The notes beneath the pieces are model-generated. The model had not been told where the DNA came from, did no database searches, and worked only from the letters and a program-made list of their open reading frames with translations. Source: an uncultured Pseudomonadales bacterium (GTDB taxonomy: Bacteria; Patescibacteriota; Microgenomatia; UBA1400; Chazhemtobacteraceae). From it: a stretch of 64,000 nt of DNA. Where the stretch lies: NCBI GenBank assembly GCA_964422035.1, contig CAYQZQ010000001.1:377013-441012 (forward strand). Reading direction: 5' to 3'. Below, in pieces: positions 36,217 to 41,124 of the stretch; position 1 is the stretch's first letter; the number at the start of each line of letters is the position of its first letter. Made by a program: the position numbers and the translations under genes.

Positions 36217-36543
36217 TTATAATTTTTTTGATTTAGTTATGTTAGGTTCTTTATCGTATATAGGTATAACAGGCGGTTGTTGATCATTTATGGGAATCTT
36301 TAGGGCAAAAGCCAAGGCATTGGCGACAGCCACACCAACACGGGTGCCGGTAAAAGAGCCGGGGCCAGGGTTGACCTGGATACTAGTAAGATCCTCTTTT
36401 TTGGCTCCTACTTTTGTAAGAGCTTCATCGATGACTGACAGAATCTGTTGATCTCTGGGAGTTGAGTAGTTTTTAACAAACTCTTTGTCATCAATTTTTA
36501 CTATTGTCTTGGTGTTGTCTGTGGTGTCTAGATATAGTTTCAT
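36217..36543 (-). CDS. tsaB: tRNA t6A37 biosynthesis protein TsaB, short single-domain form
   Basis: 'LYLDTTDN' (compare 'LALDTST') and 'VNPGPGSFTGTRVGVAVANALAFAL' match the TsaB/YeaZ N-terminal domain. Only 108 aa long. It overlaps tsaE by 4 nt. Confidence 0.7.
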   Translation of the reverse strand: MKLYLDTTDNTKTIVKIDDKEFVKNYSTPRDQQILSVIDEALTKVGAKKEDLTSIQVNPGPGSFTGTRVGVAVANALAFALKIPINDQQPPVIPIYDKEPNITKSKKL

Positions 36544-36962
36544 TTTTCAATTGAGATTAGTCGTGTATTTTGATCTTTAACTGCAAAGTTTAATCTTAGA
36601 TGATTTTTTGGTAACTGACCCTCAATTTTATCAGCCCACTCGATTAATACCAGATTTGACTTGTCTTGCCAGATCTCTTGGATGCCCAGGTCAAGGATTT
36701 GTTGAGTGGAGTTTAGACGGTATAGATCAATGTGATAGAGGGTTTTAAAGCGGGAGTGATCTATGGAGTACTGACGAATCAGAGTATAGGTGGGAGAGAG
36801 CATACTATCTATATTAAGCAACTGCCCTACTCCTTGAGCGAAGACGGTTTTACCGGACCCTAAGGGGCCCACAAGGGCTACCAGATTGGTGGATAGTGAT
36901 GTGAGTATGTCCTCTGCCAGATCCTTGGTTTCTTGAGGTGAGTGAGTGGTTATTTTATCCAT
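36540..36962 (-). CDS. tsaE: tRNA t6A37 biosynthesis ATPase TsaE
   Basis: P-loop 'LVGPLGSGKTVFAQG', 'SPTYTLIRQY' and 'YHIDLYRL' are TsaE/YjeE hallmarks. Confidence 0.85.
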   Translation of the reverse strand: MDKITTHSPQETKDLAEDILTSLSTNLVALVGPLGSGKTVFAQGVGQLLNIDSMLSPTYTLIRQYSIDHSRFKTLYHIDLYRLNSTQQILDLGIQEIWQDKSNLVLIEWADKIEGQLPKNHLRLNFAVKDQNTRLISIEK

Positions 36963-37318
36963 TTTAGAAGTTTATGATTTTTACGTAGAAAAATCCAAGC
37001 CAGTATTAAACCAGTGATATCAAAAAGCAGTACATCACGAAGGCTACCCCCTCTGCCGGGAGTAAATAACTGGTGGGTTTCATCAGTGAAAGCGTATAAA
37101 GCACCTATTAAAAAAGCTTTTTTGTGTTTGTCTTTCTTTTGTAAAGCGCGGGACAGTAAAACAAATAAAGTTGCATACTCAAATACATGGGCGGTTTTTT
37201 TAACAACAAAGTCTATGGGGTCGATGCTACTGGCTTGAATAATAGGTAGTGAAGATAGATAAAAGATGACTGCCATCCATAAAAAAACTGGGACCCAGCG
37301 CTTGAGAAATTTTGCCAT
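36950..37318 (-). CDS. VanZ-like family membrane protein
   Basis: Four TM segments. 'TDETHQLFTPGRGGSLRDVLLFDITG' matches the VanZ core. Confidence 0.65.
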   Translation of the reverse strand: MAKFLKRWVPVFLWMAVIFYLSSLPIIQASSIDPIDFVVKKTAHVFEYATLFVLLSRALQKKDKHKKAFLIGALYAFTDETHQLFTPGRGGSLRDVLLFDITGLILAWIFLRKNHKLLKWIK

Positions 37319-37330
37319 AGGCTGATTTTA

Positions 37331-38176
37331 TCATTCTGAGCGAAAAATCCTAAGTTGGCGTCTTCCCCAGAGAGCAAGCGAGGTAAGACTAAGCCCCCCG
37401 CCAAGAAACATAAGTAAGCGAGGCATACGAGAAGGAGAAGATGAAGATAGGGACTTTGAAACACTGCTTGTAGAGCTAGCTTGAGATGAAGGAGTACTAG
37501 ATTCTGATAAAACCAAACCAGACGGGCTGGATTGAGAAGATTCAGTGGGAGTAGTAATAGTTGTTGTTGTAGCTAAAACTTTTTTGGAGATAGTAGGGGT
37601 TGGGACATATGTTGAACTAGGAGCTTGAATCTTACTGGGCGCAGGGGTCGGTGTTGGTGTAGATGTTGAAGTGGTAGTGGGAGTAGATGTAGGAGTTGGA
37701 GTAGGAGTAGAAGGAGCCTGATTAGCTTGATTGAAGGTTGGGTCAGTATTGGCTACAAAATCTCCTGAGCCGTCAGGGATACGAGAATAGGTTTTGTTAT
37801 CTGTCGAGGAAGAGTACTGATAGGAATCAATTAATTGAGCTTTGTTGTCAAACAACTTAACGGTATCACCTGAATTATTTAACCAACCTTTGCCTTCAGG
37901 TTGCTGGAAGACCATAAAACCCTGGGCAGGAATGATGGTACTAGTGTAGATAGCTTGAGTGATAGTTAGGTCATCAGAGCTGATTTTATTATCATCCTGG
38001 ATCTCCCAGCCCTCAAGATCAACTTGCTCACTACCAAGATTGAATAACTCCACCCATTCTGGATCACAATCAGGACAAAACTCATTTATGACCACTTGAG
38101 CTAAAACAAAAAAGGGGGAGATGAAAAATAAACAAGAGAAAACTGCTAGAAAGAAGAGAAGCAGTTTAACTCTCAT
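37331..38176 (-). CDS. secreted lamin-tail-domain (LTD) protein with S/T/P-rich linker and C-terminal TM + Arg tail
   Basis: Signal peptide, then 'VVINEFCPDCDPEWVELFNLGSEQVDLEGWEIQDD...GDTVKL', the LTD signature. Followed by TPTPTPTSTPTTTSTSTPTPTP and a poly-S region, ending 'LLMFLGGGLSLTSLALWGRRQLRIFRSE'. Confidence 0.7.
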   Translation of the reverse strand: MRVKLLLFFLAVFSCLFFISPFFVLAQVVINEFCPDCDPEWVELFNLGSEQVDLEGWEIQDDNKISSDDLTITQAIYTSTIIPAQGFMVFQQPEGKGWLNNSGDTVKLFDNKAQLIDSYQYSSSTDNKTYSRIPDGSGDFVANTDPTFNQANQAPSTPTPTPTSTPTTTSTSTPTPTPAPSKIQAPSSTYVPTPTISKKVLATTTTITTPTESSQSSPSGLVLSESSTPSSQASSTSSVSKSLSSSSPSRMPRLLMFLGGGLSLTSLALWGRRQLRIFRSE

Positions 38177-38201: not shown

Positions 38202-39356
38202 CTAGGGTAGGTGCCAATAAAGAGTGACTAATCCATCTCCATGATCAATGACCATCCCTTTGCCAATGGTTCCCGTTAGCCAACAAGCTTCAGAATCTTG
38301 AGTTAAATATGCAGCTCCAGATTCAGCAGCATAAATTGGGGCTCCTCTTGTTTCCCTATCTTCATATCTATAAGCAAAATCTAGTCCGGTGTGAGTACCA
38401 AGGATGTATGATTCGTGATATTCTGCGGTAATGATACTCCCAGGTAAAGGATGTTGTAATCTGTTGTTATCTAGATAATTATGAGGATTTACTCTGTCAC
38501 CAATAACTTTCCCTTTTTCAACTTTAGCATTTTCGAAAACTTCGAAATGCAGATGAGGGTTAGTTGAGCAACCTGTATTGCCAACACTAGCTATGATTTC
38601 TCCCCTATCTACCTCACCGATCTTAGTGCCAATTGAAGATAGCGCTCTTTGAATAGAGGCTTTATCGGCTTTGGCAATAGCTAAGAGTCTCTGAAATCTC
38701 TCCTCTTTATTTTTAGTCTCTTCAAACAAGATTTCTTTCTGTGTTTGTTGTTGAGTGAGTGTGGCTTCTTGTTCTTGTAAGCTATCTTGAAGAGCTTTTA
38801 CTTCGGCTTGCTTATCTTCTTTGGAAGTTTTTTGCTGATCATAGTCAGTCCGGGCATTATTCAACTCATGCATTATTAGCTGATCTCGGCGCTGAGCAAG
38901 TTGTAAGTAGTGTAAGCGATTTTGAAAATTATTTAAGGATTTACTGGAGAGAAATACCAGCATGGAGTTTGGTTGACGAGATTTGTATGCAGCTTTAACC
39001 CGAGACTGAAATACCTGACTGAGGCTGTCTAACTCTTTATTTAAGTCTTCAATGACAATTCCAAGTGATTGGATTTCTTTTTCCAGTTTATTAATTTGGC
39101 TGCGAGTATTTTGTATTTGAGCATGAGTGAGACTTATTTTAGAATCCAAGAGATTGATAGTTGCTTGTAAAGTTGAACGCTTATTTTCCAAACTACCTAT
39201 CTTACTTTGACAGTCGTTTATGTAATCAGTGTAATTGAAGTCTGGATTAGGATTTTCGGGTAAAGAATCTCCACACTCAATAGCTTGAGAAGAAGTAAAG
39301 GGAATGAAGATTATTAAGCTGAGAAGTATGATGGGAAAAATTATTTTTTTCTTCAT
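38202..39356 (-). CDS. EnvC/PcsB-like coiled-coil murein hydrolase with a circularly permuted M23 (LytM) peptidase domain
   Basis: Signal peptide, about 200 aa of coiled-coil, then M23 motifs in non-canonical order: 'GNTGCSTNPHLHFEV' (normally C-terminal HxH) precedes 'GTHTGLDFA' (HxxxD) and 'IDHGDGLVTLYWHL', after which the protein ends. It lies directly downstream of ftsEX. Confidence 0.75.
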   Translation of the reverse strand: MKKKIIFPIILLSLIIFIPFTSSQAIECGDSLPENPNPDFNYTDYINDCQSKIGSLENKRSTLQATINLLDSKISLTHAQIQNTRSQINKLEKEIQSLGIVIEDLNKELDSLSQVFQSRVKAAYKSRQPNSMLVFLSSKSLNNFQNRLHYLQLAQRRDQLIMHELNNARTDYDQQKTSKEDKQAEVKALQDSLQEQEATLTQQQTQKEILFEETKNKEERFQRLLAIAKADKASIQRALSSIGTKIGEVDRGEIIASVGNTGCSTNPHLHFEVFENAKVEKGKVIGDRVNPHNYLDNNRLQHPLPGSIITAEYHESYILGTHTGLDFAYRYEDRETRGAPIYAAESGAAYLTQDSEACWLTGTIGKGMVIDHGDGLVTLYWHLP

Positions 39357-40261
39357 TTTTTTAGGAAGCGAGCAACTGCTAATGATCCAGAAACTAGCCC
39401 TAAAAGGACAGCGAAGACCATTAAGCCTGCCAGCACCTGCAGCATGAAGAGCGGAGAGGGTGGTAAGGGAATGATGCCAGCTAAACGAGGTGCTAAAAAT
39501 GGAGTGGTGTAGAGAAGGGCTATGTAAGCAAACAACCAGCCGAAAGTGGCGCCGGTTGTGCTGTAGAAAATGGATTCTAGTAGATATGGCATGGCGATAA
39601 ACTTATTCTCGGCTCCTAAAAGCTTTAAGGTCTTGATTTCGAAACGACGATGGCCGATTTTTAGGGAAACGATGATCATGATGGTAAGGATTGAAGAGAA
39701 GGTTAGGGCAGTAATGAGAGTAATGCCGGCTAGGCGAATGGCTTTTGTCCAGGCGGTTAATTGCCTGACAACATCTTGAGGGAAGTCTATATCTTTTTGT
39801 CCTTGAGCATTGGTATCAACCAAGGATGAGTTTTGCAGTACTTCCATTACTTGGGGGAAGTCTTTGGAGTTTTTAACAGACACCTCTAGCGAAGCAGGAA
39901 GAATGTCAGCGGTAATTACAGAAAGGTCAGTAACTGTACCTAAAAGAAGCGGATCATTGCCAACGCTTTCTTTATAAATTTCTAAGGCTTCTTGCTGGGA
40001 AACATACTTAACGCCCTCTACAGCCTCTGTTTGCTCAAGCTGTGTTTGTAGGGGAGTTACTTGTTGTTGAGTAACATCATCTTTTAGATAGGCAATAACT
40101 TGAGGACGAGTCTCGAAGTGACGCAAGGTCACCTGAGCACCTAGGGCTACCAAAGCAAAGACGGTGGTTACAAAAAAGGTAACTGTCAAAACGGCAGTAG
40201 CTGATAAGGCTTGATAAGGAGTACGACGGATATTTTTTAGAGCGGTTTTATATGATCTCAT
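39353..40261 (-). CDS. ftsX: cell-division ABC transporter permease FtsX
   Basis: TM1, a large extracytoplasmic domain, then three C-terminal TM segments. 'ALKNIRRTPYQALSATAV' is the FtsX N-terminal motif. Overlaps ftsE by 4 nt. Confidence 0.8.
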   Translation of the reverse strand: MRSYKTALKNIRRTPYQALSATAVLTVTFFVTTVFALVALGAQVTLRHFETRPQVIAYLKDDVTQQQVTPLQTQLEQTEAVEGVKYVSQQEALEIYKESVGNDPLLLGTVTDLSVITADILPASLEVSVKNSKDFPQVMEVLQNSSLVDTNAQGQKDIDFPQDVVRQLTAWTKAIRLAGITLITALTFSSILTIMIIVSLKIGHRRFEIKTLKLLGAENKFIAMPYLLESIFYSTTGATFGWLFAYIALLYTTPFLAPRLAGIIPLPPSPLFMLQVLAGLMVFAVLLGLVSGSLAVARFLKK

Positions 40262-41124
40262 GATTTTTTATCTTGTTTTTTATTATTGGTTTTGTCTTTG
40301 TCTTTATTTTCTTCTTTGGGCTTGTCGTCTTTTTTGTCTTTAGATTTTTCTGCCTCTTCTGTTTTTTTCTCTTCTTTTTTACTATCTGACTTGGTGTCTT
40401 GTTTGATTTCATCTGGATCTTGTTTTTTGTCTCTTTTGGCTAGCTTTTTTGGTTTGGGCTTATCTTCTTCTTTTTGAGCGTCGTTGATGGATGGGAGTTT
40501 AATCTGCCTTTGATCAAGATAGTCGATGATGGGTTGATCGTGAGTGGCTAGTACTACGGTAGTGCCCAGTTGATTGATTTGTTTTAATAAATCAGCGATC
40601 TGCTTGGCAGTACTTATGTCAAGGTTGCCGGTTGGCTCATCTGCTAGGAGAATTTCTGGCTCGGTTGCCATGGCGCGGGCTAGACTGACTCGTTGTAGTT
40701 CTCCGCCGGACAGTTGAACGGGAAATAAAAGTTTTTTTGATGAGAGACCGACCAACTCTAGTAAGTGGTCGACACGATCTTCGATAGCTTTATCTTCTAA
40801 ACCAAGTATTTCTAAACTTAGAGAGATGTTTTCTTGGACTGTTTTGTCTTCGATGATGCGAAAGTCTTGAAAGGCAAAGCCTACTTTGTGACGGAGAGTG
40901 CGTACTTTTTTAGGATCAAGATCGGTGATGTCTTCACCATCTACCTTTATGGTGCCACTGGTAGGCTCAAGATCTTTATATAAAAGGCGCAAGAGAGATG
41001 TCTTGCCTGAACCGGAAGGGCCTTCGATGATGACAAATTCTTCAGGTTCTATCTTGAAACTTAGCTTCTTCAAGACGGTATCACCGTTGGCGAAGGTCTT
41101 GGTTACATTTTCAAAAATAATCAT
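40258..41124 (-). CDS. ftsE: cell-division ATP-binding protein FtsE with ~75-aa Lys/Glu/Asp-rich C-terminal extension
   Basis: '[11 protein letters not shown]', Walker A '[14 protein letters not shown]', signature '[14 protein letters not shown]', Walker B '[12 protein letters not shown]'. The tail is [19 protein letters not shown]...KKQDKKS. Confidence 0.88.

Follow-up and report, generated by a model that had tools for sequence, protein, structure and literature searches.

In a 64,000-nucleotide stretch of contig CAYQZQ010000001.1 (assembly GCA_964422035.1, forward-strand positions 377,013 to 441,012), to which we refer as the window, the last gene of an ftsE-ftsX operon encodes a long coiled coil followed by a circularly permuted peptidase domain of the M23/LytM family. 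The motifs of this domain run HxH, HxxxD, YxH along the chain, and the stop codon follows two residues past the catalytic histidine. We regard it as almost certain that this order is a genuine circular permutation, conserved among relatives. From sequence evidence we further consider it probable that the protein is an active peptidoglycan endopeptidase, coupled to FtsEX, with a rewired catalytic domain. The permuted order had been proposed, with the segments that display it, in an earlier note made from the letters of the window alone, and it is borne out by out-of-order alignments of the open reading frame 38202..39356 (minus strand) to both Pfam and the PDB. The segments given in the note all belong to this reading frame.

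Order of the catalytic halves

The gene (38202..39356; this and all features described below lie on the minus strand) comprises 384 codons and a stop, as given by the open reading frame list and the Pfam M23 match. The C-terminal ~146 residues form a beta-rich domain, and the span that the earlier note had singled out (38202..38720) corresponds to residues ~213-384 plus the stop codon. Alignment to PDB entry 6jmx and to Pfam divides the domain into two halves. Half 'B' (residues 239-295; 38472..38642) is the C-terminal half of a canonical M23 domain, placed first here; it holds GNTGCSTNPHLHFE with H268 and H270 of the HxH motif (38547..38555) and ends in NPHNYL (290-295). Half 'A' (residues 303-384; 38205..38450) is the canonical N-terminal half, placed last, with the motifs PLPGSIIT, HTGLD (H322 and D326 of the HxxxD motif, 38379..38393) and VTLYWH (H382, the catalytic histidine of the YxH motif, 38211..38213), after which only L-P precedes the stop. 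The positions of these motifs were read directly from the sequence. Between the halves, a linker of 7 residues identified in the alignments (DNNRLQH, D296-H302; 38451..38471) connects the ancestral C-terminus to the ancestral N-terminus.

The Pfam profile Peptidase_M23 (PF01551) matches the protein with 57.4 bits (E 1.7e-15), above its curated cut-off of 28.7, and the match is split in two stretches, the outcome that the earlier note had expected of such a scan. Membership of the family (MEROPS M23) is supported by this profile match, but the canonical order of elements (HxxxD, YxH, HxH) is absent. When the protein was compared with the PDB by phmmer, query residues 318-383 aligned with residues 145-198 of 6jmx and query residues 239-278 with residues 198-238 of the same chain. 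By this alignment the two segments are out of order and the permutation cut falls exactly after the 'YxHL' motif, in agreement with the permuted order proposed earlier; the permutation is clean, the 7-residue linker joining the old termini. Each half is also recognised on its own, half 'B' with 37.2 bits over profile positions 62-92 of 96 and half 'A' with 28.9 bits over positions 2-52 of 96, against the same cut-off of 28.7.

When the sequence was re-ordered in silico, with residues 300-384 set ahead of residues 236-299, it matched the Pfam M23 profile in one unbroken stretch (68.6 bits over positions 2-92 of 96) and aligned without a break to each of 34 distinct PDB M23 chains, among them 6jmx, zoocin A, lysostaphin, LytM, ShyA and EnvC. 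Because only the re-ordered sequence aligns contiguously, the protein is, by its sequence, a topological variant of the M23 family and not a standard member. The two halves sum to exactly one M23 domain, with nothing duplicated or missing, and no second M23 fragment was found elsewhere within the window.

Structure prediction is consistent with one folded unit. An AlphaFold2 (AF2) model of the domain (residues 236-384) has a predicted local distance difference test score (pLDDT) of 93.8 and a predicted template modelling score (pTM) of 0.89, and it forms one compact domain whose strands follow the canonical M23 series, rotated. In the full-length model (pTM 0.52) pLDDT is at least 92 across the M23 domain, with a dip in confidence at residues 231-250, and the new linker reaches pLDDT 97-98 in the AF2 models. 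By these models the permuted domain may be equivalent in three dimensions to a canonical M23 domain.

Conservation, distribution and origin of the permuted order

A homology search returned 471 relatives, of which the best 120 are 258-418 residues long; the closest match other than the protein itself is 55% identical. The HxH motif stands ahead of HxGxD in all 120 of these closest homologues, and nearly all of them terminate in TLYWH plus two residues. With the permuted domain alone as query, a HMMER search of 1.84 billion cluster representatives gave 71 matches at E <= 1e-10, and the same permuted order appeared in ~48 of the best 150 representatives. Across GTDB, with one genome scanned per species, 358 species representatives encode a relative. 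Records that carry relatives are named Daviesbacteria, Levybacteria, Curtissbacteria, Beckwithbacteria, Pacebacteria and Microgenomates group, a taxonomic spread read from the titles of related records, many of which are generic or implausible.

A profile built from divergent members led to further permuted subfamilies, one with the C-terminal sequence TLYGHMID, to which a Berkelbacteria record belongs, and another with the C-terminal sequence GKMTLYLHLQ. The position of the new terminus and the length of the new linker vary little among the permuted proteins that we collected: the chain ends 2-3 residues past the catalytic histidine in 195 of 207 single-domain proteins, and the spacer, counted between motifs (from the close of NPxxYL up to, but not including, the conserved PL/PM), spans 4-6 residues in 135 of the 146 proteins in which it could be measured. 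The permutation is conserved across homologues, in hundreds of ultra-small bacteria of the Patescibacteria/CPR, and therefore selected.

The same observations bear on the most mundane explanation of the swapped order, namely that a frameshift, a misassembly or a chimeric gene call produced it. One collected protein does have this appearance: in P0131 (361 residues) a YchF-like GTPase N-terminus precedes the final part of the coiled coil and the permuted M23 domain, with a chimeric gene call or an assembly join as the probable cause. The gene in the window, by contrast, is an open reading frame without interruption, an identical protein (P0001) is recorded from a 725-kb contig, and the window holds no leftover half-domain. 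The 120 closest homologues and the 358 species representatives, which come from many independent projects, share both the order and the position of the stop. The search of relatives for the same order, suggested in the earlier note, found it in hundreds of independent assemblies, and no frameshift, misassembly or misreading of the order was encountered. We therefore hold an artefact to be so improbable as to be negligible.

Several features of the distribution deserve mention in their own right. In two proteins the permuted M23 domain occurs without a coiled coil: in P0133 (211 residues) a signal peptide is combined with a linker rich in Pro and Ser, and P0247 (172 residues; locus L084, 832-1350) has a signal peptide and a C-terminus that extends past the catalytic histidine as a PEP-CTERM-like sorting tail (weak match to Pfam PF07589). 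Public annotation names permuted proteins 'peptidoglycan DD-metalloendopeptidase family protein', 'EnvC' or 'CwlO-like'. No match to the domain was found by tblastn among 50,697 phage records. Many metagenome-assembled genomes (MAGs) that serve as GTDB representatives and bear the operon are titled 'uncultured Gammaproteobacteria' or 'Pseudomonadales' (loci L002, L004, L008, L011-L015 and others), and they include single scaffolds of 0.3-0.8 Mb that carry the Patescibacteria-type operon; these titles look like placeholder or wrong taxonomy.

Two groups of proteins inform the origin of the permutation. The first consists of coiled-coil M23 proteins of canonical order within the same phylum, from Parcubacteria (Portnoybacteria and Paceibacterota; P0320 and P0383), whose coiled coil (LLxxTKNxExYQxLL, SFSDF) and HxxxD half are homologous to those of the permuted proteins. 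In an alignment of permuted and canonical proteins of Patescibacteria, the coiled coil and the HxxxD half are collinear; what differs is the place of the HxH half, which is between these two elements in the permuted proteins and at the C-terminus in the canonical ones. Two sampled loci of the P0320/P0383 type lie after gltX and near ftsW-murG. Positional orthology with these canonical Parcubacterial relatives was considered and rejected, their genes not being adjacent to ftsEX.

The second group comprises tandem M23-M23 proteins, which make up 29 of the best 150 representatives in the domain-only search and align to the whole permuted domain across the junction between their two domains (P0145, P0157, P0163, P0166, P0173, P0177 and others). 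Because they span the permuted domain in this way, an origin by tandem domain duplication followed by truncation of the outer halves is plausible on sequence grounds and is the likeliest route, and the tandem proteins themselves are plausible models of the duplication intermediate. The identical cut site across subfamilies favours one permutation event.

Probable coupling to FtsEX

The permuted gene stands last in its operon. The first gene (40258..41124) encodes a 288-residue FtsE-like ABC ATPase (Pfam ABC_tran, E 5e-35) and the second (39353..40261) a 302-residue FtsX-like permease (Pfam FtsX_ECD at residues 54-149, E 5e-15; FtsX at residues 182-294). The stop of ftsE overlaps the start of ftsX by 4 nucleotides (ATGA), and an ATGA overlap of the same length joins ftsX to the permuted-M23 gene, so the association with FtsEX asserted in the earlier note stands. 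The arrangement extends to relatives: of 80 related loci, 72 have ftsE-ftsX directly 5' of the permuted gene, and the rest are three loci without enough upstream sequence and a few with an intervening gene or another arrangement. FtsEX genes also adjoin three divergent permuted subfamilies (loci L081, L082 and L083), in one of which, L082, the order is prfB, the permuted M23 gene, ftsE, ftsX. A genetic association with ftsE-ftsX, one mark of the class of FtsEX-controlled hydrolases, is present here.

The N-terminal architecture of the protein resembles that of known FtsEX partners. Residues 1-24, MKKKIIFPIILLSLIIFIPFTSSQ (39285..39356), read from the sequence by eye, form a putative hydrophobic signal peptide or anchor, of which residues 6-16 are helical in the AF2 model. 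The coiled coil follows at residues ~42-238 (38643..39233), delimited by AF2 secondary structure, Foldseek and conservation, with long helices at 63-125 and 141-214. Its hairpin tip carries a conserved motif (LxFSSxxFSDFxxRxxYLQ), and its last helix (218-240), conserved as TKNDExRYQxLL...SIxRAL, continues directly into the catalytic domain. The top Foldseek matches of the full-length model are EnvC in FtsEX complexes (8tzl_E, 6tpi_A), followed by RipA, RipC and PcsB, with 6ewy, 8idc_E and 4cgk among the entries. Together with the AF2 helices, these matches identify an antiparallel coiled coil of the EnvC/PcsB/RipC type. Homologues carry precomputed Pfam matches to PF24568 (CC_PcsB), and the NCBIfam PcsB profile scores 31 bits, under its cut-off. 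The NCBIfam EnvC profile (NF008644) scores 45.4 bits against a cut-off of 270, over the coiled coil only, and the protein does not qualify as an EnvC by this measure. The description in the earlier note of an EnvC-type coiled-coil fusion accordingly holds for the architecture, in which the model resembles EnvC, RipA, RipC and PcsB, but does not extend to the LytM domain, which is degenerate in EnvC and intact in the permuted protein.

Five residues of the domain, H268, H270, H322, D326 and H382, are invariant in an alignment of 60 homologues and align to their counterparts in 6jmx and zoocin A. By alignment to characterised M23 enzymes, H322, D326 and H270 would be the zinc ligands and H268 and H382 the catalytic histidines. 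The pattern of ligands and catalytic histidines expected of an M23 enzyme is present in the sequence, as the earlier note had stated for the zinc ligands.

These residues matter for an alternative in which the protein is a non-catalytic LytM regulator, like EnvC, NlpD or DipM, that FtsEX uses to activate a separate amidase or other hydrolase. Its EnvC-like architecture and best structural matches would suit such a role, LytM factors are well documented as activators (PMC11627006), and in a few sub-clades the metal motifs are altered (to PHLDF or to an expanded HxxxD). However, EnvC-type factors are without zinc ligands (PMC11627006), whereas the five residues are invariant here in 60 sequences, HxH and HxGxD occur in 120 of the 120 closest homologues, and no amidase gene was found in the operon. 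We consider a purely regulatory role unlikely.

The coiled coil, the conserved tip motif and last helix, the linkage to ftsEX and the intact catalytic residues are the reasons for reading the protein as an FtsEX-controlled hydrolase. Known FtsEX partners are coiled-coil proteins whose tip is gripped by the extracellular domains of FtsX, with ATP-driven motion releasing an inhibitory element, and the enzyme that acts at the septum can be the partner (PcsB, CwlO, RipC) or an amidase that the partner activates (EnvC) (PMC11627006). On the model of EnvC, PcsB and RipC, the permuted protein would be a secreted or membrane-proximal M23/LytM endopeptidase that serves the FtsEX ABC complex as its extracytoplasmic partner in this Microgenomates-like bacterium of the Patescibacteria. 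ATP binding and hydrolysis by FtsE would move the extracellular domains of FtsX, which would grip the tip of the coiled coil; the resulting movement of the coiled coil would lift auto-inhibition of the hydrolase domain, and the freed domain would cut peptide cross-links at the division site. Unlike EnvC, the permuted protein would itself be the hydrolase. The chain enters its catalytic domain at the strand that normally follows 'YxHL' and continues through the HxH half, the new linker and the HxxxD half. In this scheme we infer zinc binding, peptidoglycan cleavage, the substrate bond, FtsX binding and regulation alike.

Cut at this point, the domain receives the last coiled-coil helix beside the strand that bears His382, and the free C-terminus lies two residues from His382. 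It is conceivable, though in our judgement doubtful, that the permutation is a functionally selected rewiring, in which FtsEX-driven motion of the coiled coil gates the active site directly and the C-terminal tail or carboxylate acts as an intramolecular inhibitor or product mimic. If true, such gating of the active site would be a mode of regulation not seen in EnvC, PcsB or RipC. In those three proteins a separate 'restraining arm' helix occludes the groove.

Several points weigh against the reading of the protein as a permuted, FtsEX-coupled endopeptidase. The two sampled canonical-order coiled-coil M23 relatives from Parcubacteria are not adjacent to ftsEX, and because these relatives sit away from it, a coiled-coil M23 architecture alone does not prove FtsEX coupling. 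The full-length AF2 model, at its pTM of 0.52, is uninformative on how the coiled coil docks to the domain. A neighbour-joining tree built on re-ordered sequences does not discriminate between one origin and several: the exact split between permuted and canonical proteins appeared in 14 of 100 bootstraps, with 15 heterogeneous canonical sequences falling on the permuted side. Finally, an order-dependent Foldseek search of the domain model against the PDB returned no M23 structure (best E 0.15), as is expected when an order-dependent aligner meets a permutant. The same model gave three viral proteins at TMq ~0.5 in BFVD (two named as cyanophage virion proteins and one without a name), which we suspect to be tandem M23 proteins.

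The position of the Parcubacterial genes also lends something to a second alternative, in which the protein is an active M23 hydrolase merely co-transcribed with ftsEX and not regulated by it, for example an episymbiont weapon or a feeding enzyme directed against the cell wall of a host. Patescibacteria are commonly host-dependent, and the permuted M23 domains of P0133 and P0247 manage without a coiled coil. Against this, the translationally coupled ATGA overlaps and the synteny with ftsE-ftsX, in 72 of 80 loci and in divergent subfamilies, point to a functional unit, while the coiled coil resembles known FtsX-binding partners and its tip motif is strongly conserved. We judge that a hydrolase outside the control of FtsEX is quite improbable.

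The Foldseek result would likewise be compatible with halves that do not constitute one intrachain domain, whether they complement one another in trans within a domain-swapped dimer or are relics of a tandem duplication in the course of decay. Tandem M23-M23 proteins that align across the junction do exist, and PcsB forms an inhibitory dimer (PMC11627006). Nonetheless, the halves sum to exactly one domain, AF2 predicts a compact monomeric domain (pTM 0.89) with a confident 7-residue linker, and decay is hard to square with the strong purifying conservation of the catalytic residues, so that we give this possibility very little weight.

Two further observations concern the domain itself. The protein has a cysteine five residues ahead of HxH (C263 in GNTG-C-ST; 38568..38570) and another in an inserted hairpin of the HxxxD half (C357; 38286..38288). 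The GNTG-C-ST cysteine, in whose place other subfamilies carry F, N or Y, co-occurs with the hairpin cysteine in 153 of 153 proteins; the pair looks, from this covariation, like a subfamily-specific disulfide adjoining the active site. Separately, altered metal motifs are found among the permuted proteins P0281, P0286, P0288 and P0294 and P0249, P0270 and P0305: PHLDF replaces PHLHF in one sub-clade and SHRG[VI]GWPGGxD replaces HxxxD in another. To judge from these motifs, such sub-clades may have a different metal geometry or may be non-catalytic derivatives.

The flanking genes and the FtsE homologue have peculiarities of their own. The last ~60 residues of the FtsE homologue (40258..40450) form a long Lys/Asp/Glu-rich low-complexity tail, unusual for FtsE, that lies beyond the ABC domain (the Pfam ABC_tran match is confined to residues 18-165). 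Starting 25 nucleotides downstream of the permuted-M23 gene is a gene for a lamin-tail-domain (LTD) protein (37331..38176) that has a linker rich in Pro, Thr and Ser and a hydrophobic anchor at its C-terminus. In ~25 of 80 related loci (L005, L011, L013-L019 and others) an LTD homologue lies 3' of the permuted M23 gene, and the LTD gene may be part of the same envelope module. Three genes in the same orientation come next (36217..37318): one VanZ-like, tsaE, and one TsaB/TsaD-like that is very short, at 108 codons. A divergent relative, at locus L081 (4469-5600), repeats the order ftsE, ftsX, permuted M23, one further gene, VanZ, TsaE and short TsaB.

Relation to known hydrolases and meaning for the family

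The closest parallel in overall design is EnvC (E. coli, V. cholerae and P. aeruginosa; PDB 6TPI, 8TZL and 8I6S), which likewise has a signal peptide, a long antiparallel coiled coil and a C-terminal LytM/M23-type domain; EnvC works as a partner of FtsEX, to whose genes the permuted gene is linked. In EnvC the LytM domain follows the canonical order, has lost its zinc ligands and activates amidases (PMC11627006), whereas the permuted protein keeps all catalytic residues. In logic the protein would resemble PcsB (S. pneumoniae), CwlO (B. subtilis) and RipC (M. tuberculosis), in which the FtsEX-controlled coiled-coil protein is the hydrolase itself, in bacteria without an outer membrane. Their coiled coils are structurally similar (4cgk, 8idc, 6ewy), but catalysis falls to cysteine peptidase domains of the CHAP or NlpC/P60 type, in contrast to the zinc M23 domain here. 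With LytM, lysostaphin, zoocin A, Csd3/HdpA-type proteins (6JMX), ShyA and MepM the domain shares its motifs (HxxxD, YxH, HxH) and predicted strand inventory, and both of its halves are significantly similar to these enzymes. It differs from canonical M23 peptidases in that the halves are swapped, the new termini lie beside the catalytic histidine and the old termini are linked.

Natural circular permutation has precedents among cell-wall hydrolases, in the NlpC/P60 families (YaeF/poxvirus G6R and LRAT-like; PMC6403190), and topological variants are known among hybrid-barrel HABAS domains, barrel-sandwich hybrid folds being related to part of M23 (PMC11515920). These permutations concern other folds or families, and neither source describes a permuted M23 catalytic domain. 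The full-text literature, within a coverage that leaves out most subscription journals, yielded no permuted M23/LytM domain and no FtsEX partner in Microgenomates. The earlier note knew of no description of permuted M23 domains, which agrees with this search within its coverage, and a circularly permuted M23 domain has apparently not been described so far.

Enzymes of the M23/LytM family, among them lysostaphin, LytM, ShyA/MepM and EnvC/NlpD, hold a central place in bacterial growth and division and in the engineering of antibacterial enzymes, and to our knowledge the M23 domain has always been treated as a single topology. This natural permutant indicates that the fold tolerates a cut beside the catalytic histidine and the joining of its old termini, which protein engineering can use directly, for instance in new fusion points and switchable lysins. 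It also exposes a weakness of order-dependent tools, which split or miss permuted domains: Pfam gives two partial matches, and Foldseek against the PDB gives no M23 structure.

For the organisms, the protein would represent a fifth type of FtsEX partner, with an M23 domain that is catalytically intact by sequence, in a major uncultivated phylum in which cell division has hardly been studied. It also provides a case in which to test how FtsEX mechanotransmission can be coupled to a hydrolase. The permuted M23 domain is widespread in one phylum, yet it falls within a well-understood enzyme family and regulatory scheme.

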